Positions 7,589 to 55,314 of a stretch of DNA of 64,000 bases are shown one piece after another. This DNA is from an uncultured Gammaproteobacteria bacterium (GTDB lineage: Bacteria; Pseudomonadota; Gammaproteobacteria; JABCZS01). How positions within the stretch are numbered: the first letter of the stretch is position 1; every line of letters begins with the position of its first letter. The stretch is taken from the NCBI GenBank assembly GCA_964383495.1, contig CAYLHG010000003.1, forward strand, positions 17,771-81,770. Direction: 5' to 3'. Below the pieces are notes generated by a model. It was not told where the DNA came from and made no database searches. It saw nothing but the letters and a program-made list of their open reading frames with translations. The position numbers and the translations under genes are program-made.

Positions 7589-7625
7589 CATGCAGCCGCT
7601 CTATTTATTAGGGTTTTTGTACTAA

Positions 7626-9902
7626 TCACTCACCCAATGGCTCAGCATGCCCACACGTCTTAATCGGACATACTTTTTCTTTCCCTTTGCGCTTGGTTTC
7701 TTTTTTTGTCATCATCAAGAAACCACATTTAGGACAAGGTTCATCCAAAGGTTCATTCCAAACAGCAAATTTACAGTCAGGATAACGGCTACACGAATAA
7801 AATATTTTTCCGTAACGCGATTTGCGCGACACCATATTTCCTTGGGAGCATTCGGGGCAACGCACCCCCGTATCAGCCGGTTTTTCTAACGGCTCAATGT
7901 GCTTGCAATCAGGATACCCCGTACATCCAATAAATTTACCAAAACGTCCATGACGAATTTGTAATTTTTTGCTGCAATCCGGACAGTCCCTATCTAAAAT
8001 TTCTGGTTGTGATGTTTCTTCTCCATCCATGCTGCGCGTGTAATCGCAATCAGGATAGGACACGCACCCAATAAACCGTCCGCGTCGACCTAAACGAATA
8101 GATAATTCTTTTCCACATTTAGGGCATTTTTCATCTAATTTTTCTTGCGTCACATCACTACGCTTCACATTTACTTCTGTATCATCTACTAACGTTTTAA
8201 ACGGTTGCCAGAAATTTTCTAACAAAGGCACCCATTGCGCTTCGCCGCGTGATACAGCATCTAATTGATCTTCCAAATGCGCTGTAAAATCATAATCGAC
8301 ATAATTTGTAAAATACTCTGTCAAAAATTTGTTGACGACTTTACCTACATCGGTAGGAATAAAACGTTTTTTATCCATTTCAACATATTCACGCGCTTGA
8401 AGTGTATGAATAATACTTGCATACGTAGAAGGGCGGCCAATACCGTGCTCCTCTAATGCTTTCACAAGGCTTGCTTCCGTATACGCAGGCGGAGGTTCTG
8501 TGAAATGTTGAATCGGCTCAATGCTTTTTAAAGAAACTATTTGTCCTTCGTGAAACTCAGGCAACATTTTTTCATCATCTTCGCCCGGTTTTTGATCATC
8601 CACACCTTCTTGATACACAGAAATAAAACCCGGATCAACAATTGTTGAACCCGTTGCACGAAATACATGCTGCTCATCTGCTGCTAAATCAACACCCACT
8701 GTATTAATGGTCGCATGAATCATTTGGCATGCAACAGCTCGCTTCCAAATTAATTGATACAGTTTAAATTGATCGGCAGATAAATGTGTCTTAATAGCTT
8801 CCGGCACATTTTCTACGTGCGTAGGGCGAATAGCTTCATGCGCTTCTTGTGCATTTTTTGATTTTGATTTATACACGCGCGGTTCATCGGGTAAATTTTT
8901 CTTTCCGTAGCGTGATTCAATAAATGCACGAATTTCTGCTACCGCTTCAGGTGCTAAATGCGTCGCATCAGTACGCATATACGTAATCAAACCTTCTACA
9001 CCATTTCCAACATCAACACCTTCATATAATTGTTGCGCAGTGCGCATGGTGCGTTGTGCTGTAAAGCCTAATTTCCGTGCTGCCTCTTGTTGCAATGTGG
9101 ATGTGATGAACGGCGCAGCGGGGTTTCTTTTACGTTGTTTTTTCTCTATATTTGTAACAGTTAATTTCCCTTGCGCTAATTTTTCTAGCTTTTGTTGCGC
9201 TTTTAATGCAGTTGCTTCATCAGTAATAGTAAATTGCTCAAACTTTTTTCCATCAAACAAAGTTAATCTGGCATCTACCTCTTGTCCATCTGGATGACAA
9301 TGCGCTTCAATACTCCAAAATTCTTGTGGCACGAAAGCATCAATCAATGCTTGTCGTTCAACGATCATTCGCAAAGCAGGGCTTTGCACACGTCCGGCCG
9401 ATAAACCGCGTCGAATTTTTTTCCATAACAATGGGGATAAATTAAAACCTACTAAATAATCTAACGCACGACGTGCTTGTTGCGAATGCACTAAATCCAT
9501 GGATAATTCGCGCGGGTGTGCAATGGCATCTAATACTGCATTTTTGGTAATTTGGTTGAACACGATACGATGTACGGCTTTACCTTTCAATGCATTATGC
9601 TCTTTTGCTACTTCATAAAGATGCCAAGAAATAGCTTCCCCTTCGCGGTCTGGGTCAGTGGCCAGTAGCAATTCATCTACATCTTTCAACGCTTTTAAAA
9701 AAGTGTCGACGTGCTTTTTATTTTTTTCGATTAATTCATAACGCATGGCAAAATCATGTTGCGGATCAACCGCGCCTTCTTTGGCTACTAAGTCACGAAT
9801 ATGGCCATAAGAAGCGATGACCTTGTAATCCTTCTTGCCCAGATATTTTTCCAAGGTTTTTGTTTTAGCTGGCGATTCAACGACAACGAGACGTTTAGTC
9901 AT
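7626..9902 (-). CDS. topA: DNA topoisomerase I
   Basis: Toprim N-terminus (VVVESPAKTKT), active-site region and three C-terminal C4 zinc ribbons (CPKCG, CPDCS, CPECS). Confidence 0.95.
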   Translation of the reverse strand: MTKRLVVVESPAKTKTLEKYLGKKDYKVIASYGHIRDLVAKEGAVDPQHDFAMRYELIEKNKKHVDTFLKALKDVDELLLATDPDREGEAISWHLYEVAKEHNALKGKAVHRIVFNQITKNAVLDAIAHPRELSMDLVHSQQARRALDYLVGFNLSPLLWKKIRRGLSAGRVQSPALRMIVERQALIDAFVPQEFWSIEAHCHPDGQEVDARLTLFDGKKFEQFTITDEATALKAQQKLEKLAQGKLTVTNIEKKQRKRNPAAPFITSTLQQEAARKLGFTAQRTMRTAQQLYEGVDVGNGVEGLITYMRTDATHLAPEAVAEIRAFIESRYGKKNLPDEPRVYKSKSKNAQEAHEAIRPTHVENVPEAIKTHLSADQFKLYQLIWKRAVACQMIHATINTVGVDLAADEQHVFRATGSTIVDPGFISVYQEGVDDQKPGEDDEKMLPEFHEGQIVSLKSIEPIQHFTEPPPAYTEASLVKALEEHGIGRPSTYASIIHTLQAREYVEMDKKRFIPTDVGKVVNKFLTEYFTNYVDYDFTAHLEDQLDAVSRGEAQWVPLLENFWQPFKTLVDDTEVNVKRSDVTQEKLDEKCPKCGKELSIRLGRRGRFIGCVSYPDCDYTRSMDGEETSQPEILDRDCPDCSKKLQIRHGRFGKFIGCTGYPDCKHIEPLEKPADTGVRCPECSQGNMVSRKSRYGKIFYSCSRYPDCKFAVWNEPLDEPCPKCGFLMMTKKETKRKGKEKVCPIKTCGHAEPLGE

Positions 9903-21188: not shown

Positions 21189-22339
21189 ATGATAACTCGG
21201 CTATCTCAATCGACAATCCTACAGCAGCTGCGCCACTCACCCGCTGTAGCCTCTTAGGCCCGCGGCAAGTAGGGAAAACCACGCTCGCTCGCGAAATTGC
21301 TAGGCAATGGCCCAAAGAAAATGTTTACCTTGATTTAGCAAGGATTAGCGAACCTGAAATTTACCTCAAAAAACCAGGCAAATTAATTATTCTTGATGAA
21401 ATTCAAAGAGTTCCCACGCTATTCCCTGTATTGCGATCAATCATTGACGAGCGTCGCTTTGCCGGTGAAAAAAATGGGCAATTTTTGCTTCTAGGGCCTG
21501 CTTCGTTGGACATTGTTCAAGGTGTTTCAGAAAGTCTTGCAGGTCGCGTGTCTTATGTCGATTTAGGTATTGTAAATGCACTTGAGTATTCCTCCGACAA
21601 CGATTTAAATCCCTTATGGTTACGGGGTGGGTTTCCAGAGAGTTTATTGGCAGGCACAGATATAGAAAGTTTTATTTGGCGAGAAAATTTTATTACAAGC
21701 TATCTGGAGCGCGATATTCCCAATTTAGGGCCCAGAGTTCCTGCTGAAACGTTACGGCGTTTTTGGACAATGCTGGCACATCTACAAGGGCAAATCATCG
21801 ATAAAGCCAGTATTGCTGCGGGTATCGGCGTAAGCGCTCCTACCATTGCACGTTATATTGATCTTTTAGTCGATTTATTTTTACTTCGTCCGCTACAACC
21901 ATGGTCAGGCAATATCGGCAAACGTTTGGTTAAACGTCCTAAGTATTTTATTCGTGACAGTGGTTTAGTACATGCATTATTAAATCTTACAAGCCTAGAT
22001 GATTTACTGGGCCACCCCGTAGCAGGTAAAAGTTGGGAAGGATTTGTTATAGAAAATTTATTGTCTATAGCGCCTAAGCGAGCCATCCCATTTTTTTATG
22101 AATCAAGCAGCAAAGCAGAAATTGATCTTGTTTTTGAAATCTCACCTCACACCCGTGTTGCCATAGAAGTAAAACGATCTCTCAATCCCACACTTTCAAA
22201 AGGATTTTACAATGCCTGTGAGGCGCTTGCCATTGAGCAGTCCTACATTGTTTATCCTGGACAGGAACGTTTCGCCTATGCTAAAAATATTGAAGTATTG
22301 CCATTGAAAGAAATGATGGAAATGATAAGAGACATGTAA
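21189..22339 (+). pseudogene. DUF4143/AAA_14 ATPase gene, frameshifted near the Walker A region
   Basis: ATG at 21189 gives MITRLSQSTILQQLRHSPAVAS*. The +1 frame then continues LLGPRQVGKTTLAREIA...DEIQRVP into the ORF-track protein (TTG at 21431). A 1-nt indel lies within 'gtagcctcttagg'. Confidence 0.6.
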
Positions 22340-22527: not shown

Positions 22528-24105
22528 CTAGGGATTCCCCCCTAAATCAGGGCCTGCTTTTGGAATGTTACCAGAAGCAATTGGCTGAGCCGAGTATCCA
22601 GTGAGGCTAGTTGAGCTTGTTGCCGTACAACGCAAGGTGCTTTGTAACTGCTCAAGATGGGCGTACAGGGGCACTTTATAAATGTCATTTACTAAAAAAC
22701 TGACGGGGACATTGTGTTCAAATAAAATGGTTATCCGAAAACTGGGCTTGGAATTCTCATTTGTATTTTCTTGGATACAATGCACTTGATGTGGGATAAC
22801 GCCTATACTAAAAACTAATTCAGTGTAAACAGCAACAAGCAAATTTTCTAGCTGGTCTTGACTCGAAGTTGGTATAAGCAACCCTATGCTTACATAGCTG
22901 TCATCCCCAATGGGGAATAGCTTATCAATGACAGTATTTGCTGCTTCGACATTTCGAAATCGGACCAGCGCATTCGCAAGGATAGCGGCTATTTTCATTT
23001 TTTTTAAAAGCGCTTGTTGATTGTCTGCACGATATGCTGAAAGCGCAAGATGAAAAAAATCATGCTCAGGCATTAAAGAAGGGCCTAGATATTGGTCATG
23101 TGCTGCGTAAAGATTACTTTTAGCATTAGGTAAGTAAGCTTGTACAAGGCGTGCCCCAAAAAAAGCAGCAGCATTAAACGCTTCATAAGGCAGATATCCG
23201 AAAGCAAATATAGGAAGCACTTGTTGTCGTGTGTTCCTTAAAGCACCATAAAGGAGTGCGATGGAGGGATAATGGATACTGAGTTTTTGTTCATTATTGG
23301 TCACGTAATAAGGTAATCCACCAATCAAAGTTTCTATAGTGACTGGCAGCCGTTTCCACTCATCTAGCGGTTCCGTGACCCGCTGGTAAGCCAACCGGCC
23401 CCATTCAGAAGCCAAAATGCCAGTATAGCCCAATGTAATATCTGCAAAAACCACTTGATGTAATAAGAGGGGCTGACAAGATGGAACGTACTCTTTTGAA
23501 CGCGCTTTTAAGGGGGTTTGCTCTGTTGCCATGTACAGTGTAAACGGCGCTTCGCCAAACTGAATAATGCTTGCTTGCCACAAAAGCAACGTATTGAGTG
23601 TATCTATAGAAAGTGCGCCTTGATCTACCCTATTCAATGCTACGCCCAACCATTGAGATGTTTTAAACAAAGCACATAAGCGGGTTTTTAAATCCTGCAA
23701 TGCTTCTTGTGTTATTTCTTCTTCAGGTTGATTGAAAGTGTTATTAATAGAGGAAATCTGCGCAGTAATATTGTGACATATATTTGGGTTCTCAGGCAGA
23801 TCAAGTAAAAGTTGATCTTCTTTAGTAACAAATGCAGTTAAAAACCACCGCTTGAGTAGCTCAACGTTATGGGCAAATGGTTGTTGAGAGAGATGAAAAA
23901 GATCGACAAGCGCAGATGATGGGAGAGGCTGCTTTTGATTTGAAAGTACTCGTTGCTTTTGCTCTTCTTTGCTTGGAATCTGTGCAGCCCATTGTTTCGC
24001 CCACTCGGGGCTATCTTGGGAAACAAAGGGAGAGGGACCAAATTTTAAATGCTCTGAAGGAATCATCTGCAACACCCCAATTACAATATATTTGTAAGTT
24101 ATCAC
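22528..24105 (-). CDS. Hypothetical 525-aa protein, 15 bp downstream of znuA on the same strand
   Basis: Long ORF with no recognisable motifs. True start may be the Met at 24066. Confidence 0.55.
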   Translation of the reverse strand: MITYKYIVIGVLQMIPSEHLKFGPSPFVSQDSPEWAKQWAAQIPSKEEQKQRVLSNQKQPLPSSALVDLFHLSQQPFAHNVELLKRWFLTAFVTKEDQLLLDLPENPNICHNITAQISSINNTFNQPEEEITQEALQDLKTRLCALFKTSQWLGVALNRVDQGALSIDTLNTLLLWQASIIQFGEAPFTLYMATEQTPLKARSKEYVPSCQPLLLHQVVFADITLGYTGILASEWGRLAYQRVTEPLDEWKRLPVTIETLIGGLPYYVTNNEQKLSIHYPSIALLYGALRNTRQQVLPIFAFGYLPYEAFNAAAFFGARLVQAYLPNAKSNLYAAHDQYLGPSLMPEHDFFHLALSAYRADNQQALLKKMKIAAILANALVRFRNVEAANTVIDKLFPIGDDSYVSIGLLIPTSSQDQLENLLVAVYTELVFSIGVIPHQVHCIQENTNENSKPSFRITILFEHNVPVSFLVNDIYKVPLYAHLEQLQSTLRCTATSSTSLTGYSAQPIASGNIPKAGPDLGGNP

Positions 24106-24120
24106 TCAAAATATAATTTG

Positions 24121-25029
24121 TCAATGATTAAGCTGTTGTTTGCTTTCACTCTGGCCCAGGCATCCTACCAGCTCATCCGCAATATCTGTCAGCAAGGCAG
24201 CATAACCTTCTGTGCCAGCAGGGATTTCTGCTCCCATTGGGTTCAATACCCCCAGCTTTACATGGTTCTCTGTCGCAAACTGCTTCAACGTGTCACTGTG
24301 ATTTTGCGGCTCGCTAAATATACAAGGAATATGCTCTGCTTTCACCAGTTGGCTCATCGCTAGCCAGCGCTTTGCACCTATCGGCACGGTGGGGCTGAGC
24401 ACAATACTATCTAAGCGTTTTAACCCATAACGTTTTTCAAAATATTGAAAAGCATCATGATAAACCAAAAAAGGTATTGATTGCATAGGTGTCAATTTTT
24501 TTTCCAATTCAGTATTCAGCGCAGAAATCTTCTCAACAAATTTTGCGACATTTCGTCGGTATATTTTTTGACGTTCAGGATCAAGCGCACTCAAACGTTT
24601 TTCCAATTGTTTAGCAATCGTCATCGCATTAAAAGAATCTAACCATAAGTGTGGATCCATGGGGACATTTTGAGGAATAGTATCGTCTGTTTGCCGCAAT
24701 GGATAACGCAACATATAAGGCTCAGCGAGTAACACCATTTGTCGAGAAACAGGTACTTTTGCAATAGCATCCGTTAAATACGTTTCTAACGAAGGACCAA
24801 TCCAAATTAAAACATCTGCTTTTTGAATAGCCGCGTATTGTGAGGGCTTTAACGCATAAGCATGTTCAGAAGCGCCTTCTGGCACAAGCAACACAGGATG
24901 CCCCACGTTCCCCATGACAGCTTGCGCAATATGGTACAAAGGCAAAATACTAACAACTACTGTCGGCGCCTGTGCAAAAGCATGCGTCGCTACGACGATC
25001 CAGAGCAGCCACCCGAAAAACCATTTCAT
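24121..25029 (-). CDS. znuA: Periplasmic zinc-binding protein ZnuA (TroA family)
   Basis: Signal peptide, DPHLWLD and HDAFQYF motifs. Lacks a His-rich loop. Confidence 0.8.
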   Translation of the reverse strand: MKWFFGWLLWIVVATHAFAQAPTVVVSILPLYHIAQAVMGNVGHPVLLVPEGASEHAYALKPSQYAAIQKADVLIWIGPSLETYLTDAIAKVPVSRQMVLLAEPYMLRYPLRQTDDTIPQNVPMDPHLWLDSFNAMTIAKQLEKRLSALDPERQKIYRRNVAKFVEKISALNTELEKKLTPMQSIPFLVYHDAFQYFEKRYGLKRLDSIVLSPTVPIGAKRWLAMSQLVKAEHIPCIFSEPQNHSDTLKQFATENHVKLGVLNPMGAEIPAGTEGYAALLTDIADELVGCLGQSESKQQLNH

Positions 25030-25848
25030 TTATTGCCTCACTAAACGTATGTTGTTAGGTCGCCCCGTTTTGGATGTGCTGCGATAAGGATTAATATCTA
25101 CACCTCCACGGCGAGTATAGCGCGCATACACTGTTAATGCGCTCGGCTGGCAGTACGATAAAATATCCAAAAACATTTTTTCCACACAATGTTCATGAAA
25201 TTCTTGCTCACGATGGAAGTGAATGATGTATCGCAATAACGAAGGATGATCGATTGCCAATCCTGTATATTGAATTTGCACACTGCCCCAATCAGGTTGA
25301 CCCGTCACAGGACAATTTGATTTCAATAAATCAGATGTCAATGTTTCCGCCACCACTTTATCAGAACAAGTATGTAACAATGAAGCATTATCCGTAGGCT
25401 CACATGTGATCTCATATTGATCTAACGAAACACCTGGCAAGCTTGCGTGTAATGATCCATGTAAATCAGACAGCGGCGCTAACAAAACATCAACCGGCAC
25501 GCCTACTGCGTCGCTTAAATCACGTTGCAATACTGCTTGTACCGCTCCCGTACTGGCAAAACGTGATTGACTAAAACTTGTCAAATATAATTTGAATGAT
25601 TTCGATTCAATCAAAAAAGGGCTTGCGCAATCAATGCGACATTCTGCAACCGCTACTTGCGGTTTTCCATGCTCGTTTAACCAAGAGATTTCATAAGCAT
25701 TCCAAAGATCCAGACCATAAAAGGGAAGAGGATCTTGCGATGATAACCCTAATGATTCTCGCGACAATGCGCGAGGAATTTTATCTAAGAGCGAAGGCGT
25801 GTAGGTTTGAATATAAGAAGATTTTTTTCCTAAATGTGTTAATGCCAT
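25030..25848 (-). CDS. queF: NADPH-dependent 7-cyano-7-deazaguanine (preQ0) reductase, two-domain type
   Basis: ESKSFKLYL and QDPLPFYGLDLWNAYEISWL motifs with catalytic Cys and the E(F/H)HEHC region. Stop abuts the znuA start. Confidence 0.9.
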   Translation of the reverse strand: MALTHLGKKSSYIQTYTPSLLDKIPRALSRESLGLSSQDPLPFYGLDLWNAYEISWLNEHGKPQVAVAECRIDCASPFLIESKSFKLYLTSFSQSRFASTGAVQAVLQRDLSDAVGVPVDVLLAPLSDLHGSLHASLPGVSLDQYEITCEPTDNASLLHTCSDKVVAETLTSDLLKSNCPVTGQPDWGSVQIQYTGLAIDHPSLLRYIIHFHREQEFHEHCVEKMFLDILSYCQPSALTVYARYTRRGGVDINPYRSTSKTGRPNNIRLVRQ

Positions 25849-25859
25849 AAAATACCCAC

Positions 25860-27416
25860 TTAGTGTCGCTTGCTACTGCCAGAGGCTGAAGCGTAAGGTT
25901 GTGCTGCAGCAGCAATAACAGCTGGCGCCATTAAAGGTGCTTGTCCATGCAAATGCTGGACATGCACATATCCTTTAGCGCACGCCGGGTTATATTGCCA
26001 ATGTAATGTGGTAGGATTACATTGCAAAGCACCTAAACCTACTAAGCGCTGCGTGACACCTGGTTTATCTTCTGGATTTTTAAGTGGGCTTTTACCTGAA
26101 TTGTTATTTGGTTTCTGATCTAATGAGGAGGACTGCGCAACACGCAGCTCTCGCATTAATAATAAGGTGTTTGGATCATTTAAAGCGACAGGGTAACTTA
26201 CCATTTTATTACCTCTAAGGGGATCCTTGTACTGAATTTGATCTATTATCTGCTCGTTTGATTTACCTAACAACACTGTCAGTACTTCATTTTCAATAAA
26301 ATCGATTGCATCAAGCGTAGGAAGCTGCATGGGCGCTGCACGATGTTTAATATAATCAATATCAACCACCTGGTGTCTTCCATCATACTTTACATACTTT
26401 TCCGTTATCAATATGTTTATTTTTCGACTTGCTGCTAAAATTTCTGCATTATCAACGCTTCCTCGCAACAATAAAAACCGTTCACACGCACGATAACAAG
26501 CATGAAAAATAAGTTTCTTTTCGTAAAACATATTAGGTTCATTCCATGTGCCTAGGCTTATTAAAGCTGTTCCTACAATCTTCTGCATGTTGAGAAGTAA
26601 AGCATTATTTTGCATTAGAGCACGATACATATCCATCCTATCCATAATATCTTGCTTATAAACATCCAGCCGATACTGCGCTGTTACTGGCGCAAAGCCT
26701 GCAGAAATGAGCGCAGACACACGGCTGCCAATAAACAATACACCCAATACAAAAGCACCGATTCCTAAATCCCCATCAAAAACGGTGGCTGCATACGCCA
26801 TGAAAATAATAGCACTAAACACTGTGCCTAAAAAACCATTAAAATCATGTGCGTACCGGCTTGCTTGCATGTAGCGAATCGCTCGGGAAGGCCCTACTTC
26901 CTCCGTTTTGTCTGTCTTACTATTCACTAACTCCTGCAGCTTCACCTGAGCGTCGTAATATTGCTGAATCTTATGGTGGTTGGCTGCACTTCCCACAAAC
27001 ACTGCGAACATGTTCATTAACATTCCCGCATTGATGACTAAAGCAGCCCACAACGGCATGTCCTGAATCGCTACCCCTATACTTTTAATAATCGCATCAA
27101 CATGGGATACGTCACCCCCTGCGTGCATCGCAGCATCTGCCACATTAAACGCCTGTATGGCAATGGGCACTAGCACGATAGCCAACACTGCCAGAATGGC
27201 TATATTCGTCATAATACGCACGATACGGGAAATATGGGCCGCCCATCCTGCTTTCAAACGCCCATCAAATGCCCAATTGCCAAAGTCAAATAGGAAAGGA
27301 ACCCAGTGCTTGGTGTATAAAGCTCGCCCCTTTGCAAAAAAATGCCAAAAAATTCCCGAACCTTTGTGAGAATGCCCGTGACTGTGCGCTTCACCAGCAT
27401 GGCTGTGACTCCCCAT
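25860..27416 (-). CDS. Hypothetical polytopic membrane protein with His-rich N-terminus (MGSHSHAGEAHSHGHSHKG) and a ~270-aa C-terminal soluble domain
   Basis: 518-aa ORF, 11 bp upstream of queF on the same strand and divergent from znuC. Several hydrophobic helices between residues ~60 and 240. Confidence 0.6.
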   Translation of the reverse strand: MGSHSHAGEAHSHGHSHKGSGIFWHFFAKGRALYTKHWVPFLFDFGNWAFDGRLKAGWAAHISRIVRIMTNIAILAVLAIVLVPIAIQAFNVADAAMHAGGDVSHVDAIIKSIGVAIQDMPLWAALVINAGMLMNMFAVFVGSAANHHKIQQYYDAQVKLQELVNSKTDKTEEVGPSRAIRYMQASRYAHDFNGFLGTVFSAIIFMAYAATVFDGDLGIGAFVLGVLFIGSRVSALISAGFAPVTAQYRLDVYKQDIMDRMDMYRALMQNNALLLNMQKIVGTALISLGTWNEPNMFYEKKLIFHACYRACERFLLLRGSVDNAEILAASRKINILITEKYVKYDGRHQVVDIDYIKHRAAPMQLPTLDAIDFIENEVLTVLLGKSNEQIIDQIQYKDPLRGNKMVSYPVALNDPNTLLLMRELRVAQSSSLDQKPNNNSGKSPLKNPEDKPGVTQRLVGLGALQCNPTTLHWQYNPACAKGYVHVQHLHGQAPLMAPAVIAAAAQPYASASGSSKRH

Positions 27417-27573
27417 TTTTTCACCCTTATCTTTATGCGGGGTAGTAACTACATCATAAAACTACCATCCTGTCAAGAGGAGGGCTCACTCATCATCCTC
27501 ACAAATCAGTTGAAAACTATGGACGTTACAACCACCACATGCTATCGTTCTTCTCTATCGATAAGGATACACC

Positions 27574-28260
27574 ATGCAACTGCGCCTTGAAAACGTTGGC
27601 ATCCAGCAAAAAGGCCGCTGGATATTACGCGATATTTCGCTCCAAATTGATGCGGGGCAAATCATCACCCTGATAGGACCCAACGGATGCGGTAAAACCA
27701 CGTTATTGCGAGCGCTCTTGCAGCTTATCCCCCTCACCACTGGAAAAATTGAAAAAAAGCAGGGGTTACGCATTGGCTACATGCCTCAAAAACTCTACAT
27801 CGATCCCACCTTGCCACTCACTGTTCAACGTTTCTTGCAACTCAGCCCCGCCTTTAATGAAACAGTACTTGAAAAATTGCGCGTTAAACCACTGCTTGAA
27901 AAATCCATGCATGTATTATCAGGGGGAGAATCACAACGCGTATTATTAGCACGTGCATTAATGAACCAACCTGAATGCTTGGTATTGGATGAGCCACTGC
28001 AAGGCGTTGATGTGAATGGACAAGCTGCTTTTTATGATTTAATTTTAGAAGCGCGCCAATCATTGCAATGCAGTGTATTGATGGTATCGCATGATTTACA
28101 TGTTGTAATGGCCAAAACAGACCAAGTAGTCTGCTTAAATCATCACATTTGTTGTTCTGGCACACCCGAAATGGTTACATTAGACCCCGCGTTTATTCAT
28201 TTATTTGGAGAAAACGCAGCATGGTATGCGCATAAACACGATCATCATCATGATGAATAA
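27574..28260 (+). CDS. znuC: Zinc ABC transporter ATPase ZnuC
   Basis: Walker A GPNGCGKTT, signature LSGGESQR, Walker B LVLDEP. His-rich C-terminus HKHDHHHDE. Confidence 0.9.
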   Translation: MQLRLENVGIQQKGRWILRDISLQIDAGQIITLIGPNGCGKTTLLRALLQLIPLTTGKIEKKQGLRIGYMPQKLYIDPTLPLTVQRFLQLSPAFNETVLEKLRVKPLLEKSMHVLSGGESQRVLLARALMNQPECLVLDEPLQGVDVNGQAAFYDLILEARQSLQCSVLMVSHDLHVVMAKTDQVVCLNHHICCSGTPEMVTLDPAFIHLFGENAAWYAHKHDHHHDE

Positions 28261-28274
28261 AAGGATAAATAAGA

Positions 28275-29075
28275 ATGAACTATGATTTTTTAATTCGCGC
28301 TTTTATTGCTGGCATCGGCATTGCATTATTGTGCGCACCACTGGGCTCTTTGGTAGTATGGCGAAGATTATCTTATTTTGGCGATACGCTCTCACATGCT
28401 GCATTGCTCGGTGTTGCATTAAGCGCAGCATTTTCATTAGCAACACCTTTTTATGGTATTTTATTCAGCGCGATTGTAATCAGTTTATTTTTATTATTCA
28501 TGGAACATCACACGCGCTTACCCAGCGATGCTTTACTTGGGATCTTAGCGCATGGATCACTTGCGCTCGGTATTGTCGTTGTTTCTTTGTTACCTTCTTT
28601 CCGAACAGATTTATACGCTTATTTATTTGGTGATATTTTAGGTGCGAATAAAGCCGATATTTTGCACATTTACAGCATGGGTACAGTAGTATTGCTTCTT
28701 GTTGCAGCACGCTGGCGCGCATTATTAATGAGTACCATACATGAAGATCTTGCTAAAGTAGAAGGCATTCACGTCACACGTGAACGCACGCTGTTCACCT
28801 TGCTATTAGCCTGCGTCATCGCATTATCAATCAAAATATTAGGCGTATTATTAATTACCGCCATGCTGGTTATTCCCGCCGCCAGCAGCCGCGCTTTTGC
28901 TCAAACACCTGAACAAATGGTAGCAGGCGGGGCCTTAAGCGGCGTGTTAGCTGTGGGAGGAGGCCTGCTATCTTCTCTATGGTTTGATTTACCCGCTGGG
29001 CCTATGATTGTTCTAGCCAGTATCCTCATCTTTATCTTGGCGTATACGGCAAAAAGTGTTATGGTACGCGCATGA
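28275..29075 (+). CDS. znuB: Zinc ABC transporter permease ZnuB
   Basis: Eight-TM ABC-3 family permease following znuC. Confidence 0.9.
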   Translation: MNYDFLIRAFIAGIGIALLCAPLGSLVVWRRLSYFGDTLSHAALLGVALSAAFSLATPFYGILFSAIVISLFLLFMEHHTRLPSDALLGILAHGSLALGIVVVSLLPSFRTDLYAYLFGDILGANKADILHIYSMGTVVLLLVAARWRALLMSTIHEDLAKVEGIHVTRERTLFTLLLACVIALSIKILGVLLITAMLVIPAASSRAFAQTPEQMVAGGALSGVLAVGGGLLSSLWFDLPAGPMIVLASILIFILAYTAKSVMVRA

Positions 29076-29929
29076 TATCGATAGACGCACTTATTTCCAC
29101 CATCCCCTTTTTGGCGGGCTCTCCGTTTGAGGTCACATGCCTAGATGGCTGGTCTAATCACACATATTTGCTGAAGCGGGAAAAAGAAGCTTACGTTGTC
29201 CGCATCCCTATACAAGCGGATCTACCTTGGCTAAACCGAAAACATGAAGCTGCCCACATTCGCGCCATTCAAGACTTAGAAATCACGCCTCCTACCGTTT
29301 ATGACGATTCTTCCACCGGCATTGCTATTCGTGTTTATTTACCAGGGCATGTGTTAAGTGAAGATGCTACGCGCACCACACCGATCCAATTAGCTGGCAT
29401 GGCGACCATATTAAAAAAATTACATGAAAGCCCTTCTACTTTTCATCCGTTATCTTTATTTGGATTTTTAATGCGCGATATGCAATATATCGAACAATTT
29501 TTTGAATCAGAATTAGATCTACGTTACAATGAATTAAAAGCCTATGCAAAACGCATTGAAAAAAAGTGGCCTCACGTGAAAACAACGCCTTGCCATATGG
29601 ACCCTAATCCTCATAATTTTTTATGTAGTGATAATAAAGTATGGCTAATCGATTTTGAATTTGCAGGACAATGTGATCCCGCATGGGATTTGGCGTACAC
29701 CATTACTTATTGCAATTTATCCAAAACCCAAGAAAAGATTTTTTTAGATGCATATCATGCTGATGCTGCAATGCGCGAGCGCGTGCAAGATTACAAAGCA
29801 CTGACACAGTGGGTCCAAGCGATTTGGATTCGACAACAAATCACGCTAAAACACCATCCCGTTCCTGAAGATGAAATGTTACGATGGGAAGACAGAGCGC
29901 TTGAACGAGCGATGTTATTACGATCGTAA
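29072..29929 (+). CDS. Phosphotransferase-family kinase (APH/choline-kinase fold)
   Basis: HMDPNPHNF catalytic loop and IDFEFAG (DFE) motif. ATGA overlap with the znuB stop. Confidence 0.7.
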   Translation: MISIDALISTIPFLAGSPFEVTCLDGWSNHTYLLKREKEAYVVRIPIQADLPWLNRKHEAAHIRAIQDLEITPPTVYDDSSTGIAIRVYLPGHVLSEDATRTTPIQLAGMATILKKLHESPSTFHPLSLFGFLMRDMQYIEQFFESELDLRYNELKAYAKRIEKKWPHVKTTPCHMDPNPHNFLCSDNKVWLIDFEFAGQCDPAWDLAYTITYCNLSKTQEKIFLDAYHADAAMRERVQDYKALTQWVQAIWIRQQITLKHHPVPEDEMLRWEDRALERAMLLRS

Positions 29930-30630: not shown

Positions 30631-31959
30631 TTAAGCCGATAAAGATAACAATAATCGAGGCAATTCGGGGATTAAATAAAAAGGAATAGACAAAATTTGC
30701 TTATCCCATTGGGGTAGATCAGCCCAAATACGCGCTCCGCACAAAGATTTTTTTTCTTCCATAAATAATTGTAATGATTTCAGCCGCCCGGTGCTACCCG
30801 CTTTAACTTCAATAGGGATAATATTATTTGCCACTGTTAATAAATAATCTATTTGAGCTTGACTATTTTTTGCCTCTCTACACCAAAAAAATAAATGAGG
30901 ATCATCATCCATTGCTTGCAACGCTAACAACTCTTGCCCTACAAATTGCTCTGCTAATTCACCAGCATTTAAAAATAAAATATTTTGATTCAATAGCAGA
31001 TCCGCTGTCAATAAACCACTGCAATTCGCCAACCCAATATCAATAAATAATAATCTAAATTTTTTTAGATCAATGACTGCTGTTAAAGGCAACCCCGCTG
31101 CAGCCGTTCTATAAACGGGGCAAAGCAACCCTGCATTAAATAAATTTTCTAATGCTTGCTTTATTGCAACAGCGCGTATATCAGGATCAATTTTATTATA
31201 TTTTACCCACTGCGATACAAATTGAGGCGCCTGCTTCAACAAAGTTTCTAATAAAGCATGCTGAGTGTGTTTTGCATACTTCCCAAAATCCAATCGATAA
31301 CTTGCTAATAATGCTCGTTGCACTTCTTGAGCACGTAAAAAGCTACCTGTTTCAAAATAAGCATTCAACACGGCAGGCATCCCCCCTAGTACCGTGTATT
31401 CTCGAATAAGCGTTATAAGTTTTTCATGTATCGGTAAAGCGAGAGGAGACGTCATATCATAATGGCGTAAATAGTCTTTTAATTTTTTATGCCCAGCTGC
31501 TTCTAAAAACTCATAAAACGTCAACGGCTTAAGGTATAAAAATTGTACGCGCCCCACAGGCATACGAAAATTTTCATCACGTAAAGCAAATTCTAATAAA
31601 GATCCTGCCCCTACCACATGTAACGCTGAATACTGCTCTTTAAAATAGCGTAGTGCCATAATAGCATTGGGGCACTCTTGAATTTCATCTAAAAATAAAA
31701 GTGTTTCTCCAGGAATAATAGGTATCTCAGATAAGACCTCAAGCAGGGCGGTGATTTTTTGAGGATCCAATGTATCAAAACATGCCTTGTATTCTGGACG
31801 TTGCTCAAAATTAATAACACAAAAATGCTTAAAATATTTTCTGCCAAAATCGGTCACCAAATGGGTTTTACCCACTTGCCGAGCGCCTCGTACCAATAAA
31901 GGGGAGCGCACAGGATTGCCCTTCCAATCTAAAAGCTGAGCCAAAGCATCTCTGTCCAT
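30631..31959 (-). CDS. AAA+ ATPase, DUF4143/AAA_14 family (intact copy)
   Basis: Walker A LLVRGARQVGKTHL, Walker B LLFLDEIQ, DUF4143-type C-terminal region. Confidence 0.75.
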   Translation of the reverse strand: MDRDALAQLLDWKGNPVRSPLLVRGARQVGKTHLVTDFGRKYFKHFCVINFEQRPEYKACFDTLDPQKITALLEVLSEIPIIPGETLLFLDEIQECPNAIMALRYFKEQYSALHVVGAGSLLEFALRDENFRMPVGRVQFLYLKPLTFYEFLEAAGHKKLKDYLRHYDMTSPLALPIHEKLITLIREYTVLGGMPAVLNAYFETGSFLRAQEVQRALLASYRLDFGKYAKHTQHALLETLLKQAPQFVSQWVKYNKIDPDIRAVAIKQALENLFNAGLLCPVYRTAAAGLPLTAVIDLKKFRLLFIDIGLANCSGLLTADLLLNQNILFLNAGELAEQFVGQELLALQAMDDDPHLFFWCREAKNSQAQIDYLLTVANNIIPIEVKAGSTGRLKSLQLFMEEKKSLCGARIWADLPQWDKQILSIPFYLIPELPRLLLSLSA

Positions 31960-37947: not shown

Positions 37948-38873
37948 ACGGATGGATTTTATATAGCCAAGCAGCATCGCAATTAAATGAAAAACATTAT
38001 GAAATGCAGCGTTTTATTGAAGCTGCAAAGGCACTGAATATTACGTTGCACATTCTTAAACCAGAAAACGTATCTTGGGTAGTAGACGCGCAACATCCCT
38101 TACAATTATTTGTTTGCGGGGAACCTTACGCTACACCTCATTTTGTGATTGCACGCCAAGGGTTTAATACCACTTATCCTGCACTTGCACTGTTGAATAC
38201 ATTAGAACATCATGGCGTATTTTTATGTAACCATGCGCGCGCTATTCAAGCAGCGCGAGATAAATATTTCATGCATCAACAATTTGTTAAACACGGGCTG
38301 CCCACCCCCAAAACCATGCTCGCACCTTACCCTATTGATTATACGTACATTGAAAAACATATTGGATTTCCATTAGTATTAAAAATACTCAACGGTAGCC
38401 AGGGCAGGGGAGTAATGTTGTGCGACACACCCTTAGCGCTTCAAAATATGTTGGAGTTTATTTACAATTACGATCGCAAAGCCACTACATTATTGCAAGG
38501 TTACATTGCAGAAAGCCGCGGACGTGATTTGCGCGTGCTCGTGCTAGGTGGGAAAGTTTTGGGCGTATTTGAACGTTCTTCTGAAACAGATTTCAAAGCC
38601 AATTTTTCTCGCGGTGGAAAAGTAGCGCCTTTTTCCATCAATGCAGAAATAGAGCAATTAGCATTATCTGCCACGAAAATTGCAGATTTAAGCATGGCTG
38701 GTGTGGATTTATTATTTACCAATACAGGCTATACATTGTGCGAAATTAATTCTTCCCCAGGTTTTCAAGGGTTTGAACGAGCGTTGGGTGGTTCTGTTGC
38801 ACAAGCCATGCTGGAGTATTGCATACAAAGCTTAAAATCCAAAATTTGCGCCCCCACGGGACCCCCCATCTGA
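37944..38873 (+). CDS. ATP-grasp ligase of the RimK family, coupled to the pot operon
   Basis: RimK-like motifs (DK...GFPLVLK..GSQGRGVML, LLQGYI.ESRGRDLRVLVLG, DFKANFSRGG, GVDLLF...CEINSSPGF). ATGA overlap with potI. Confidence 0.7.
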   Translation: MNGWILYSQAASQLNEKHYEMQRFIEAAKALNITLHILKPENVSWVVDAQHPLQLFVCGEPYATPHFVIARQGFNTTYPALALLNTLEHHGVFLCNHARAIQAARDKYFMHQQFVKHGLPTPKTMLAPYPIDYTYIEKHIGFPLVLKILNGSQGRGVMLCDTPLALQNMLEFIYNYDRKATTLLQGYIAESRGRDLRVLVLGGKVLGVFERSSETDFKANFSRGGKVAPFSINAEIEQLALSATKIADLSMAGVDLLFTNTGYTLCEINSSPGFQGFERALGGSVAQAMLEYCIQSLKSKICAPTGPPI

Positions 38874-41432
38874 TGATGGATGATTTCTTTGGCTTTGTCT
38901 AACATACATCGGCATTGTAGCCTGCTTGTTAAATATTTCATTTGTTTTATCTAACATTTTGTTTGCTGCAGCTTCCCTATCGCTCTCACTATTGATAGTA
39001 ATTCCTGTACGAAAGGATGTCATGGAAGTGCTTTCACTGGGAGCCGTCCGAGCAATCAGCTTTGGCATAGTTATAATATAGCTTACGATGCCGTGTATGA
39101 ATTCTTCATAATCTGTGTTACTTGTGATGAGTATGACATCTTTAGGTTTGATGTTTTCAAGAAGGTGTAAAAATTCTTCTCCCATATGCCCTAAATACTC
39201 ATTACAATCATCTAGAACCCAAATAATATTTCCTGTTATACGATTTCTTGTTGCCTTGATACCACCATGGCTTTTAACGCTTTCTGGGTTTAAATAAATC
39301 GACTGCATGCCTTGCTGTACCAATATTTTTATGACGGAAATAACTAAATGTGTTTTCCCTTCTCCGGCTTTACCGTGCAAAAACATTCCAATCGCTCTAT
39401 CTTGATGTTCATTGGCAAGGGCTTTAAGGACACGCTGTGCATCTTCGTACCATGATTTTTGCTGCTCACTCTTGAGAGTGTAGTTGCTCAGCTGCGAACA
39501 ATAATTTTCTACGGGGATAAGATCTGTCATTTTATGAAAGAAAAAAAGATCGCTATGAAGTAACTTTAAATTTCCTTCTGTCATGTTACCTAAACTCTCC
39601 TGCGTCACAGCTTGATTTTTTACTTCAAGCGCTGGGTAGAAGCGGGATAACTCTGTTGCGAATATGAACGAAATACCTTTATTGTAATCCTGAATGCTCC
39701 GAAGTAATTCTGCGCGTAATTCAACATCACCGGCAGCACCATGGACCCTCTCGGACCGCATCCGCTTGGTTTGTTCGGCGTAGAGCAGTGCATTTCTTTC
39801 TATGCAGCCCAATAATTCACGAAAACGACGAAACAAACGCTCAGAATCTCTCGTGTCCACTGTCTTAAAGAACCGCATAAACTCAATAGGGCTTACATCT
39901 GTTTCCACACATAAATAATCACCATACTGGTGACAATGAATAATAATTTTTCTCAACTCTTCATTATAAGATGTATAAGTTTCAAGATGATTAAATACCC
40001 ATACCCTTGTTTTACTATTGCTCAAACTTTGAGGATGATATTTACGCAAATATTCTGAGGCAAGCCATGTCTGGTGAACACCCAGAGCATCTCGCTCCAT
40101 CTCCTTGAGGTTAACTTCAATAAAAACTGCTTCGGGAAGATCGGGTAACTGCTTCCGCGCCCCTTTACCCCAAAATAGAGTCTGGAAGGCGAATTTAGAG
40201 TTGTTGGGCTCAAATGCCATCCTCTCAGAAGCAGAAGGAAGCCAGGCGGGAAGAGGGGGCTCATAATAACTGGAAGAAGAGGAACTGGAAGAAGAGGAAG
40301 AATTAGCATGAGAAAGGGCGTTGTTGGTAGTGCCAGCGTATAAATCATCGATAGCATCTATAATCCACTCTCCATCTCCATCAGCTCTAACTTGCAGAAA
40401 AGTTGTTGAACCATCATCAAGGGGCCGTATAATAGGCCTTCTAGAACCCGCATTTGTTACCTGCTTTTTTTGTTGTTCTTGTTCTTTTTTCTCTTCCTCC
40501 CTCGCAATTCTCAACGCTATTACTACCGATTCATCGAGTTGTTGGGGTGCTACTGACGCTGACGTTCCCCCAGCAGAAGACCTTTTCAGGTGAAGCAGAG
40601 TAAGCATGGTAGCAACACAGCGTAATACAGGCTTATAAACTGGCGGTTGCAATAAAGCTACAGCAACTTTACTCCACCCTACTGATTCTGATAAAAATAA
40701 TGACGCTGAGTCTAGCTGCAGCAAAACCTTTGCAACGTGGAGCTTGTGGTCGCCGTGATATGCTCTCTTGATAATTTCTTTCAAAATGGCCGCAGTATGT
40801 TGATCTCCAACAATATCTTCCAGATAACTTTCTAAAAGCGTAGCGCAATATGTTACCTCTTCACCTTCTTTTATAGCCTGAATAATGGGCGTTAAATTAT
40901 CATCCTCACTTGCCAAAGTCGCATAGCTTATTGATAGAGAAGGAGAAAACCGCACCGTTCTATGAAGCAAGAGTCTCGGCCTTTTTACAGGTAACCATGG
41001 CATCTCTGCGATGCTAGTATCGCCCTGTGGCAGTGCTCTCTTTTTTAATTCGGGGAAAGCAGGATCCATGCAACTAGCATCCACAAGACCGCCATCAAGC
41101 AGCTTCCTTCTTTCATTCTCTTCATAGCGTTCTAATAGGCGTATAAGGCTATGAGTAAGTAATTTAGCATGTTTTTGTAAGCAGCTCCGCCCCAGCAAAG
41201 TCCACTGCAGCTCTCCTGAAACCTTAATAACAAAAGGAAAAACTTCGGCAACCAAGCTAAAAAATCGCTCCTTTTCTTGTGGAGAAGCCAGCTCATTGAG
41301 AGCTTCAACGACTTTATCGTCTCTAAAAGGTGCAGCAAGGAAGCCAAATTGCATAAAATAAGCGCTAAGCGCCTTTTTAGCATCGTCTTTATTAGTTTCC
41401 GCTAAATGTAGAATAGCTTTAGAATCAAACAT
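38832..41432 (-). CDS. Hypothetical 866-aa protein with poly-Ser tract and C-terminal P-loop NTPase-like domain
   Basis: Walker A-like HGKAGEGKTH and Walker B-like IIWVLDDCNE near the C-terminus. A run of 11-12 Ser mid-protein. 3' end overlaps the convergent RimK-like gene by 42 bp. Confidence 0.55.
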   Translation of the reverse strand: MFDSKAILHLAETNKDDAKKALSAYFMQFGFLAAPFRDDKVVEALNELASPQEKERFFSLVAEVFPFVIKVSGELQWTLLGRSCLQKHAKLLTHSLIRLLERYEENERRKLLDGGLVDASCMDPAFPELKKRALPQGDTSIAEMPWLPVKRPRLLLHRTVRFSPSLSISYATLASEDDNLTPIIQAIKEGEEVTYCATLLESYLEDIVGDQHTAAILKEIIKRAYHGDHKLHVAKVLLQLDSASLFLSESVGWSKVAVALLQPPVYKPVLRCVATMLTLLHLKRSSAGGTSASVAPQQLDESVVIALRIAREEEKKEQEQQKKQVTNAGSRRPIIRPLDDGSTTFLQVRADGDGEWIIDAIDDLYAGTTNNALSHANSSSSSSSSSSSYYEPPLPAWLPSASERMAFEPNNSKFAFQTLFWGKGARKQLPDLPEAVFIEVNLKEMERDALGVHQTWLASEYLRKYHPQSLSNSKTRVWVFNHLETYTSYNEELRKIIIHCHQYGDYLCVETDVSPIEFMRFFKTVDTRDSERLFRRFRELLGCIERNALLYAEQTKRMRSERVHGAAGDVELRAELLRSIQDYNKGISFIFATELSRFYPALEVKNQAVTQESLGNMTEGNLKLLHSDLFFFHKMTDLIPVENYCSQLSNYTLKSEQQKSWYEDAQRVLKALANEHQDRAIGMFLHGKAGEGKTHLVISVIKILVQQGMQSIYLNPESVKSHGGIKATRNRITGNIIWVLDDCNEYLGHMGEEFLHLLENIKPKDVILITSNTDYEEFIHGIVSYIITMPKLIARTAPSESTSMTSFRTGITINSESDREAAANKMLDKTNEIFNKQATMPMYVRQSQRNHPSSDGGSRGGANFGF

Positions 41433-41511: not shown

Positions 41512-42696
41512 TTAATTGGAAGCACCAGCAATAAAGTAAGACAATACATCTGGCTCGTCCACCGTATTGCACTCCGTTGAAGGTGGGTGCGGGCGATTAG
41601 CAGGAGGCACTACAGGGTATATCTGAGAGTGGAAAGTTTTTTCCCCTGCTTCTATCGACGCGTATGAAGGCGCAGAGCAGATGTAGGTGTTGAGCACTTT
41701 TCTAATATAGAACACGTAGGTTCGATCTTCGTAACGAATCGGCTTTACAGCATGTCGCGTCCACATGCCTCCCTTACTGGGCTCTACCCAAATGACCTCA
41801 TCATCACCCGACCATAGCGCTTCGGTAAGCGGCGCACTTGTCATTCTGGTACGGCCTTTACCCTCTTCGCCGTTGTAATATAATTGCAATTCGTTATTAA
41901 CGCTCAACACGCCAATCGGCGTTTTTGCTGGCAATGAAATTTTGCCTGAACGATGCAACGCATCCCATTGATTATTTTTTGCATTATAACGATGAAAAGC
42001 AGCGTAATTTCCATCGCGGATTAACCATAACGTTTCTTTATCCCCATTATCTAACGTTAATGTTATTAAACTTGCGGGCTGCTTGTTTTTTGAGCTTTTA
42101 ACTGGCACATCTTTACATGACAACGCGCTATTTGCTGATGCCGCGCAACGCAACGAAGCGGGATAATGTTTCCCACCTTTATCATAATATGCCAGCAACA
42201 TTGCATCTCCTTCAGGCGTCAATGCAGTAGAAAGATGATCATGTTCAGGGTGGCCTTTCACATTTAACGCTTGATATTCGCGTTTACCAGGACCGTCTTG
42301 AGTATGCGCGATTAAATCATCTAAACTATCAAAATAATTGTAAATAAGATGGCGGCCCTCTTCACGATGACGCCCAATTAAATATAATTTATCTGCAAAC
42401 TTTATAGGAGCAGGGGAGAAACCACCCGCTGTGAGCACAGAAGTTTTAAGCTCATAATGCATTTCATCCCACAATAAAGTGCCTTGATTATCTGCACGGC
42501 CCACCATAAAACCCACTTTTTGGTGCTTCCCTGGCACGCGGTAAAATAACACAAGCACTTCTTGTCCTGCGCTATCTTCCATCACAATCGCATCCGGCGT
42601 TAAAGGCGGATCTTGAATGCCACCCATATCAGCCCCAAATGAAGCAAGTACAGGTATTACGGCTAAACATAATGCGATGATCGCTTTTTTCATCAT
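41512..42696 (-). CDS. Secreted paralog family member 1 (signal peptide; beta-strand-rich repeats)
   Basis: Shares GPDAIVM.D..G.(D/E)(V/A)LV.FYR, LYL(F/I)GR, H.IYN.F..L.DLIAHT and DHLS.A motifs with the next three genes. Confidence 0.6.
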   Translation of the reverse strand: MMKKAIIALCLAVIPVLASFGADMGGIQDPPLTPDAIVMEDSAGQEVLVLFYRVPGKHQKVGFMVGRADNQGTLLWDEMHYELKTSVLTAGGFSPAPIKFADKLYLIGRHREEGRHLIYNYFDSLDDLIAHTQDGPGKREYQALNVKGHPEHDHLSTALTPEGDAMLLAYYDKGGKHYPASLRCAASANSALSCKDVPVKSSKNKQPASLITLTLDNGDKETLWLIRDGNYAAFHRYNAKNNQWDALHRSGKISLPAKTPIGVLSVNNELQLYYNGEEGKGRTRMTSAPLTEALWSGDDEVIWVEPSKGGMWTRHAVKPIRYEDRTYVFYIRKVLNTYICSAPSYASIEAGEKTFHSQIYPVVPPANRPHPPSTECNTVDEPDVLSYFIAGASN

Positions 42697-42739
42697 GGTA
42701 AGATCGTTCCCTTAAAAAAATTAACTTGCTGATGATCGA

Positions 42740-43867: not shown

Positions 43868-43885
43868 TTTTTATTTCCCTCTCAA

Positions 43886-46199: not shown

Positions 46200-46407
46200 T
46201 TTCCACAACCTTAGAATACCCAAAACTTCTTCAAGCATAAAGGAATCTTATGCAAATGTCCATGATATTAATTTTTCGTTAATCACATCACGGCTAACTC
46301 GTTAATATTTGAACCAGATAAAGCAGACTAACTAGCTAATTTTAACCTACCAAGCGGTTTAAACTATTTCTTAAAGCAACAAGATATGGATATAATACAG
46401 AAACCCG

Positions 46408-51905: not shown

Positions 51906-54383
<2,478 letters not shown>

Positions 54384-54786
54384 CTACCATTTTTTGCCTC
54401 AAAAGGGGAAAAGTGATTACGAAAAGAGGTGAATATCAACACTTAACTAACTTATGCTCTAGAGGGCAAGGGATACATATGCAAGGCATTTTAACGACAC
54501 TTCGACAAAGGGAGTATGGAAAAAATCAAGCTTTAAAGAAGTCTTGAAGCAAAGGAAATTATTGATACGTTTTTAAGTAAACATGAGCCCCTTTTTTTCG
54601 ATCATTACTCAATCGGGCGAATCTTAACAACAAATTGAAGCAAATGACTATAAAGGGCGCGTAAAAGTCCTTTCTCAAGCATTGACAGAGCGAATAGCAT
54701 TCATAGAGCCTTCCATGCCGCCCCTACACTACAAGAAATGATACCCAGCATACCGCAAAGATCAAGAGGACCGAAGTAAGCAAGGA

Positions 54787-54802
54787 TGTTCCACGTGGAA
54801 CA
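54787..54802. promoter_or_regulatory. parS-like palindrome TGTTCCACGTGGAACA (perfect 16-mer)
   Basis: 15/16 match to the Bacillus-type parS TGTTCCACGTGAAACA. Symmetric. Confidence 0.6.
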
Positions 54803-54944
54803 ATGAAAGAAAAGCAGAAAGCTAGGGTAGATCGCACAAAAAAACCCCCGATTCCCTGCGCGAATCTGCCCCGCCCGGATCAAATCTGGGCCAAGCTAAA
54901 AAGGAACAGCACATGCTTAACTATAAAAAGCATTTTTTAGAAAA

Positions 54945-55298: not shown

Positions 55299-55314
55299 GT
55301 TCCACGTGGAACCA
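55299..55314. promoter_or_regulatory. parS-like palindrome TGTTCCACGTGGAACc
   Basis: One terminal mismatch to the local consensus. Confidence 0.55.

Follow-up and report, generated by a model that had tools for sequence, protein, structure and literature searches.

Zinc import by the Escherichia coli-type ZnuABC system involves three components, a periplasmic zinc-binding protein (ZnuA), a permease (ZnuB) and an ABC ATPase (ZnuC). Here we report on a znu locus at positions 22528–29929 of a 64,000-nucleotide (nt) stretch of DNA from an uncultured gammaproteobacterium (contig CAYLHG010000003.1; the whole stretch is hereafter called the window). Like the E. coli-type system, the locus encodes all three components in the divergent layout common to most of the 80 ZnuA-encoding loci that we compared. 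Unlike that system, it holds queF and a gene for a histidine-rich membrane protein of 518 amino acids (aa) between the promoters and znuA, and a small-molecule kinase gene is coupled to znuB. The His-rich protein, for which the original prediction made from the window's letters had proposed a role in zinc handling, is the main subject of this study.

Several described systems bear on this protein and its neighbors. In Bordetella pertussis, the nascent CruR/DUF2946 peptide senses copper via a CxxC motif; copper relieves ribosome arrest at the C-terminal RAPP and triggers Rho termination before the copper-uptake genes.(PMC9426467) CruR is defined by a spacing of 45 ± 2 residues between CxxC and RAPP.(PMC9426467) The CruR-related CutF of Rhodobacter turns a copper-detoxifying oxidase on.(bioRxiv 10.1101/2025.02.05.636593) Legionella MavN (IroT, lpg2815), an iron-regulated effector that transports transition metals at the vacuole, is a protein of 683 aa with eight transmembrane (TM) helices.(PMC8760000) As for queF, it belongs together with queC to the Zur regulon of Neisseria meningitidis,(PMC6103462) and the Pseudomonas aeruginosa ptrA-PA2807-queF operon is induced by copper and zinc.(PMC10393844)

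Results

The His-rich protein belongs to a rare family by exhaustive sequence search

The gene of the His-rich protein (25860–27416, minus strand) encodes a polypeptide with the N-terminus MGSHSHAGEAHSHGHSH. Six histidines fall within 20 residues, against a histidine background of 2.5%. This density was reached by only two of the 91 open reading frames (ORFs) of at least 100 aa in the window, both of them in the znu locus: the His-rich protein and the tail of ZnuC. Hydropathy and an AlphaFold2 model on the family alignment (pLDDT 82, pTM 0.82) both gave about four TM helices (~66–90, 122–144, 193–213 and 217–242) followed by a soluble domain of ~270 aa. The count and the model thus agree with the His cluster, the polytopic helices and the 270-aa domain of the original prediction. 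TM1 is very hydrophobic, with a Kyte–Doolittle average of 2.8. In the model, residues 1–19 are disordered, the membrane-spanning helices are long and the C-terminal domain is of mixed α/β type; a conserved HG motif (H490) closes this domain. Flanking charges fit the predicted N-in/C-in topology, which would place both the His tail and a conserved polar cluster on the cytosolic face. Removal of the initiator Met (Gly is next; 27408–27416) would leave Gly-Ser-His, an amino-terminal Cu(II)/Ni(II)-binding (ATCUN)-type X-X-His site. Because the other family members do not share this feature, we did not rely on it.

The protein matched no Pfam or NCBIfam family and no PDB entry, by sequence or by fold. 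Consistently, no sequence or fold similarity to CDF, ZIP, NRAMP, P-type ATPase, NiCoT or ferroportin proteins was detectable. Word-indexed searches with the protein or with a family profile returned the query alone, and an exhaustive phmmer search was needed. Among 1.84 billion (1.84e9) cluster representatives, this search yielded 37 proteins including the query, with lengths of 147–800 aa. None of the 36 other representatives is named, has a Pfam family or has a relative of solved structure. A metagenome scan with a family sub-alignment added one locus (L094). By these searches, the proteins form a rare, previously undescribed membrane-protein family.

Alignment of the family defined a conserved core comprising WxPFLFW, GGRxxAG, PHG, SRxSALxS in TM4, TNQxRL and a C-terminal PHGxxFxPxxH. 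Additionally, GSAANhxKIQxYYD is found at the cytosolic end of TM2 and RYxHDxNG just before TM3. R187, G197, S238 and R249 are invariant; near-invariant positions are N135, K149, H190, D191, N193 and H490. An N-terminal His cluster is usual among members with ANH-x-K, whereas ANTVK members have no cluster and longer C-termini. His clusters were found in at least 13 of the 36 members, and in two more whose database entries are N-terminally truncated (from the loci L005 and L086). The cluster sequences are unrelated (HSHSHGHH, THHHH, HAHSHHAHQADAHHSHSH, HSHGHG, HHKHH and DHDHHHH). Re-invention of the cluster with different sequences argues for selection on histidine content, as expected of a metal-binding tail.

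Copper-type leader ORFs and Fur-box-like sites precede family genes in relatives

The family was seen in nine independent genomic contexts: eight for which DNA was available (the window, L005, L084/85, L086, L087/88, L089, L093 and L094) and a JGI contig encoding the member P0015. The window and all fetched loci, ~1.4 Mb in total, were searched with a regular expression for CxxC, 35–55 residues and R[AG]PP. Matches were obtained at four distinct loci only, namely L005, L084/85 (member P0007), L086 and L087/88 (P0020). Each matching ORF is ~85–105 aa long, has an N-terminal TM segment and ends 46–90 nt before a His-rich family gene. The four complete leaders carry an HHH[DE] patch, CxxC, 46–47 residues, RAPP and two or three last residues; the 46–47 residues fall within the 45 ± 2 of CruR.(PMC9426467) Furthermore, the contig of L094 (P0013) begins inside an ORF that ends with LARAPPIF and a stop codon, 89 nt before the gene. 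Such a leader ORF thus precedes every one of the five other His-rich members for which upstream DNA was obtained.

In leader layout and in the first-in-operon position of the leader, these loci resemble the CruR/DUF2946 operons of B. pertussis (bp2923-bfrG-bp2921) and Rhodobacter (CutF-cutO).(PMC9426467) They differ from them in several ways. The target here is a four-TM protein instead of a TonB-dependent transporter, PepSY, CopC/YcnI or multicopper oxidase, and the gap between leader and gene is shorter (46–90 nt versus 162 nt). The leaders of the relatives also carry an extra invariant His besides the HHH[DE] patch, and those of L005 and L086 matched DUF2946 (PF11162) weakly, with 17.3 and 18.2 bits against a Pfam cut-off of 23.7. 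RNA folding of the leader-to-gene gaps of the relatives gave no significant or conserved stem-loop (z −0.35 to −1.5).

The window yielded no CxxC...RAPP leader ORF with the same expression, because only 157 bp separate the His-rich gene from znuC. A 12-nt stretch in this spacer (27474–27485, minus strand, GCCCTCCTCTTG) resembles the RAPP codons of the L005 and L086 leaders and is unique in the window. Its strand and its distance from the gene are those expected of a leader end, and it may be what is left of a deleted leader ORF, although the pattern was derived post hoc. With the leader ORF lost, the His-rich gene would probably share with queF and znuA a transcript that starts in the divergent promoter region of znu. 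Judged by spacing, these three genes could be co-transcribed.

The spacer itself (27417–27573) must hold both promoters. A gammaproteobacterial Zur consensus had 0 matches at up to three mismatches in the 64 kb and 0 matches at up to seven mismatches in the spacer. Both searches agree with the earlier remark that the spacer lacks an obvious canonical Zur box. No canonical Zur or Fur box was found in the window or in the znu spacers of relatives, and a palindrome and shared-k-mer search with four relatives identified no conserved operator. A lineage-specific operator of the Zur type may still lie in the spacer. Scans for sigma-70 promoters and terminators gave matches no better than those of shuffled sequence. 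An Rfam scan near queF detected no preQ1 or other riboswitch, and tRNAs are likewise absent.

Family members without a His cluster show a different kind of upstream signal. The gene of P0010 (L089) is divergent from feoA-feoB across a 68-nt gap, and two 16/19 Fur-box matches (L089 7899–7917 and 7963–7981) lie in and beside this gap, where 0.02 were expected. P0010 is thus predicted to be iron-regulated. A 15/19 Fur-like site was found ~45 nt upstream of the start of P0016 (L093). Fur-box-like sites are therefore present in both examined members without a His cluster (2/2).

Next to P0016 (L093 3611–8562) are genes for two eukaryotic-like Ser/Thr kinases, which match Sel1, ankyrin and TIR, and for proteins with ankyrin repeats. 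Ankyrin, Sel1, kinase and TIR repertoires are typical of Legionellales-like intracellular bacteria.

The znu locus shows lineage-specific synteny and an insertion hot spot

To place the locus, we used the 80 ZnuA-encoding loci, which come from species-representative genomes and were searched with all eight window proteins. The original prediction had described the znu locus as rearranged. This overstates the case, because divergent znuA and znuCB are the usual arrangement among the 80 loci; the layout is standard and the lineage has only inserted genes. The further claim that queF and a kinase are non-standard members of Znu loci held up in the same set. Only the two closest loci, L004 and L005, both from gammaproteobacterial metagenome-assembled genomes (MAGs; ZnuA 61% and 63% identical to that of the window), have queF beside znuA and the kinase gene overlapping or following znuB. 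Searching with the kinase added L091 and L092. L091, a fifth genome, shows the same queF-znuA and znuCB-kinase layout, and on the more distant L092 contig a kinase gene (product 47% identical) overlaps a gene for a ZnuB-type permease. The overlap of kinase and permease genes is kept in L004, L091 and L092, and queF lies directly upstream of znuA in L004, L005 and L091. Four or five genomes keep these two adjacencies, which the 78 other ZnuA loci lack; judged by synteny, they are therefore fixed features of one lineage. The complete arrangement, with the His-rich gene, queF and znuA divergent from znuCB and the kinase gene, recurs in the close relative L005. The arrangement is thus not missing from all close relatives, an outcome that the original prediction would have taken as a sign of recent chance insertion.

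Atypical as it is of Znu loci, queF has precedents in metal regulons.(PMC6103462, PMC10393844) In the metal-responsive queF operons of N. meningitidis and P. aeruginosa, as here, queF lies beside metal-homeostasis genes and probably shares a transcript with them.(PMC6103462, PMC10393844) The present locus differs from them in that queF abuts znuA itself, with a gap of 0–3 nt in four genomes.

Between znuC and queF lies an insertion hot spot. It holds the His-rich gene alone in the window; a small secreted ORF, a leader ORF and the His-rich gene in L005; an ORF for a CopG-type antitoxin in L004; and a full pair of BrnT-like toxin and CopG-type antitoxin in L091. The L004 antitoxin (8829–9089) is of the CopG/BrnA type, and the L091 pair (7309–7864) combines the same type with a BrnT/DUF4258-like toxin. 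Directly upstream of znuC, L005 (6814–7272, minus strand) and L091 (7987–8451, plus strand) each have a secreted ORF of ~153 aa. The two are homologous, keep Cys and His residues (C...HCT.FVD), belong to no Pfam family and have no counterpart at this place in the window.

These varied contents suit the idea that the His-rich gene is hitch-hiking cargo without metal function, its His cluster being a low-complexity feature. Supporting this idea, family members lie near toxin–antitoxin genes (PIN in L084, HicB in L086), and the window locus lies between two DUF4143 ATPase genes that are particular to this genome. Cargo would not explain, however, why the family recurs in three metal contexts (five leader ORFs, two Fur-box-like sites and two or three znu loci), nor the different His clusters of at least 13 members. 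We therefore regard this explanation as very improbable. The DUF4143-type genes themselves lie at 21431–22339 (plus strand), where the gene looks N-terminally shortened, and at 30631–31959 (minus strand); L004, L005 and L091 have neither gene at these positions.

Location at znu does not amount to zinc specificity

Proximity to znuA suggests that the His-rich protein could be a zinc-specific accessory of ZnuABC, that is, a sensor, chaperone or auxiliary transporter that is co-expressed with znuA under zinc limitation and depends on ZnuABC. Indeed, the gene is co-oriented with queF-znuA and lies 11 nt from queF. The same placement is seen in L005, and probably on the JGI contig with P0015, where the gene of a 228-aa ABC ATPase is divergent from the family gene in a layout consistent with the window. 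Clusters of the HxH type are typical Zn(II) ligands. Moreover, the window ZnuA has no long His-rich loop of the enterobacterial type, and an extra zinc-capturing element could help it.

Among the contexts seen, znu adjacency occurs in the window, in L005 and probably on the P0015 contig. The znu loci of L004 and L091 are without the gene; the MAG of L004 keeps it on another contig (L086), not near znu and with its own leader ORF. Four more sequenced contexts (L084/85, L087/88, L090 and L093) likewise have no znu neighbor. The regulator of the relatives is a CruR-type leader, which senses copper,(PMC9426467) and no Zur box was found in the window or its spacer. The predicted topology would also put the His tail in the cytosol, whereas ZnuA works in the periplasm. 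A zinc-specific accessory thus seems unlikely. Of the originally proposed zinc-handling role, the link to metal gains support from the regulation of relatives, while the specificity for zinc does not. Leader ORFs point to copper and location points to zinc, and copper is at least as likely.

Comparison with MavN

The family resembles MavN/IroT in being polytopic, in its length (~500–700 aa), in having no known domains and in its link to metal-starvation regulation, which in the family takes the form of Fur boxes upstream of members without a His cluster, one of them beside feoAB. Prominent histidines are a further likeness, and those of MavN are functionally critical.(PMC8760000) The His-rich protein could thus be a translocated vacuolar metal transporter, exported by a type IV secretion system to the membrane of the host vacuole with both termini in the host cytosol. 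Its tail would capture host metal, which would pass into the vacuole lumen and on to the adjacent importer (ZnuABC here, FeoAB in L089). The Fur boxes and feoAB of L089 mirror the iron-regulated MavN that feeds FeoB,(PMC8760000) and metal-regulated TM effectors such as LciE and MavN are known.(PMC6989116, PMC8760000) The family is also extremely narrow and fast-evolving: the His-rich proteins of the window and L005 are 34% identical, against 63% for ZnuA, and C-terminal extensions vary widely. Genes for ankyrin, Sel1, eukaryotic-like kinase, TIR and patatin proteins, typical of Legionellales effector repertoires, occur among the neighbors. The L005 contig is 1.58 Mb long, and the genome may be small.

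Several observations speak against translocation. MavN has eight TM helices, as compared with about four here, and no Legionella protein was among the 37 phmmer matches; the comparison with MavN was made through these matches and its published description. Neither the 64-kb window nor the fetched loci showed a secretion-system gene, and the C-terminus has no obvious signal of the Dot/Icm type. The hydrophobicity of TM1 points to the inner membrane of the bacterium as the place of insertion. The sensing of periplasmic metal by CruR-type leaders would suit an ordinary envelope protein as well. On balance, a host-directed transporter of this kind appears doubtful.

Other genes of the locus and the window

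All seven ORFs and nearly all junctions were as originally predicted. The minus strand carries, after the His-rich gene, queF (25030–25848) and znuA (24121–25029). Direct reading of the sequence showed 11 nt between the stop of the His-rich gene and the queF ATG, and a 0-nt gap where the queF TAA abuts the znuA ATG. On the plus strand, znuC (27574–28260) and znuB (28275–29075) are followed by the kinase gene (29072–29929), whose ATG overlaps the znuB TGA as ATGA.

ZnuA matched PF01297 at 2.6e-56. Its best NCBIfam match is ZnuA (NF007091), with 191.6 bits against an equivalog cut-off of 268, and this match outscores AztC and MntC. The sequence contains a signal peptide and the three conserved His positions (EH, DPH and YHD). 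ZnuC passed its model (NF007090, 311 bits against a cut-off of 306). ZnuB matched PF00950 (ABC-3) at 8e-69, and ZnuB is also its best NCBIfam match (NF007089), with 248 bits under a cut-off of 284. The locus differs from the E. coli-type system in these sub-threshold ZnuA and ZnuB scores, in the missing long His loop of ZnuA and in that no Zur box was found. QueF is of the bimodular type (TIGR03138, 360.4 bits against a cut-off of 293.45), with QueF_N and QueF Pfam domains and the motifs SNCPVTGQPDW and ESKSFKLY. These profile matches and motifs confirm the identities of znuA, znuB, znuC and queF and show that the locus encodes a true ZnuABC zinc importer. The C-terminus of ZnuC (28225–28260) is a His-rich tail, AHKHDHHHDE. 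L004 and L005 share this tail, through which the importer may sense zinc in the cytosol or be regulated.

The 285-aa kinase matched PF01636 (APH) at 3e-22 (79.9 bits against a cut-off of 23.2) and PF01633 (39 bits against 29). It contains HMDPNPHN, corresponding to the HxDxxxxN catalytic loop, and the metal-binding IDFEF/DFE motif. The nearest PDB entries are 3dxq and 4r77 of the choline kinase family (choline/ethanolamine kinases), whereas scores for the thiamine kinase and GntI equivalog models were far under their cut-offs. By its motifs and matches, it is an APH-family small-molecule enzyme of the choline/ethanolamine/thiamine-kinase-like type.

Downstream of znuA lies an orphan ORF (22528–24105, minus strand), originally described as a 525-aa operon member 15 bp from znuA. 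A start at ATG 24066, giving 512 aa and a 54-nt gap, is more likely because a Shine–Dalgarno-like GGGGTG lies upstream and gene callers chose this start on three independent contigs of the same organism. The protein has no family or PDB match and, among the 94 fetched loci, occurs only on this organism's own contigs. In L004, L005 and L091 the place after znuA is taken by traT. The ORF therefore falls outside any conserved unit. Like the 518-aa and 525-aa proteins, a neighboring 205-aa protein had no Pfam or NCBIfam match.

Elsewhere in the window, gyrB-recF-dnaN-dnaA (51906–59427, minus strand) shows that it spans the chromosomal replication-origin region. Four tandem paralogues with signal peptides and shared motifs (394, 375, 409 and 408 aa; 41512–46238, minus strand) look like an expanded family of secreted proteins; one of them was scanned against Pfam and had no family. 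Two orphans look effector-type, a 722-aa protein with two C-terminal TM helices (4042–6210, minus strand) and an 866-aa protein whose sole match is a weak one to STAND NTPases (38832–41432, minus strand).

Discussion

The Znu core of this locus is ordinary, and the His-rich protein leads to a so far undescribed family of membrane proteins linked to metal. We consider it fairly probable, if far from certain, that this family has a role in the supply of transition metals and that its expression follows metal status. This is the best-supported explanation because the family recurs with three different metal-control devices. In one lineage the znu locus has fixed two passengers, with queF fused upstream of znuA and the kinase gene translationally coupled to znuB. 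The His-rich gene would be part of a mobile two-gene module, consisting of leader ORF and gene, that landed in the znu hot spot and lost its leader here. We propose that the flexible, cytosol-facing His tail and a conserved cluster of N146/H147/K149, R187/H190/D191/N193, R249 and H490, where membrane and cytosol meet, bind a divalent metal, either copper or zinc. The bound metal would then be passed or gated across a membrane alongside the neighboring high-affinity importer.

A number of points weigh against this explanation. Nine independent contexts are a small base, and the znu position lies inside an insertion hot spot and is perhaps accidental. The 157-bp spacer has no Zur, Fur or other recognizable operator, and the window copy has no leader ORF. 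Where leader ORFs are present, they score under the Pfam cut-off for DUF2946. Moreover, DUF2946 leaders switch off (CruR) or on (CutF) with copper, which does not imply induction by starvation.(bioRxiv 10.1101/2025.02.05.636593) In the predicted model, four TM helices in a generic four-helix-bundle fold make up no recognized transporter architecture. The conserved residues are predicted on the cytosolic face and not in the bilayer, a position that would suit a sensor or an enzyme equally.

A broader version would make the proteins a new metal-delivery membrane family of uncultured, probably intracellular Legionellales-like gammaproteobacteria, analogous to MavN and with metal-specialized branches. 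The His-tailed branch, with a CruR-type leader or at znu, would serve copper or zinc, and the tail-less branch, with Fur and feoAB, would serve iron. Host metal would be moved over the vacuolar membrane or, with a new four-helix mechanism, over the bacterial inner membrane, and would so reach the cognate high-affinity importer. We offer this version tentatively, as possible but rather unlikely.

The family of the His-rich protein is absent from database descriptions, and three independent kinds of genomic context tie it to metal homeostasis. The same gene with a leader ORF in L005 and without one in the window constitutes a natural experiment. If confirmed, the family would be a new class of downstream target for CruR/DUF2946 leaders, whose targets so far are mainly TonB-dependent transporters and copper enzymes. 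The recurrence of queF in metal-responsive operons of Neisseria, Pseudomonas and the present lineage hints at a link between queuosine synthesis and copper or zinc status. If the proposed role in metal supply is true, the family could explain how intracellular bacteria without MavN acquire zinc, copper or iron.

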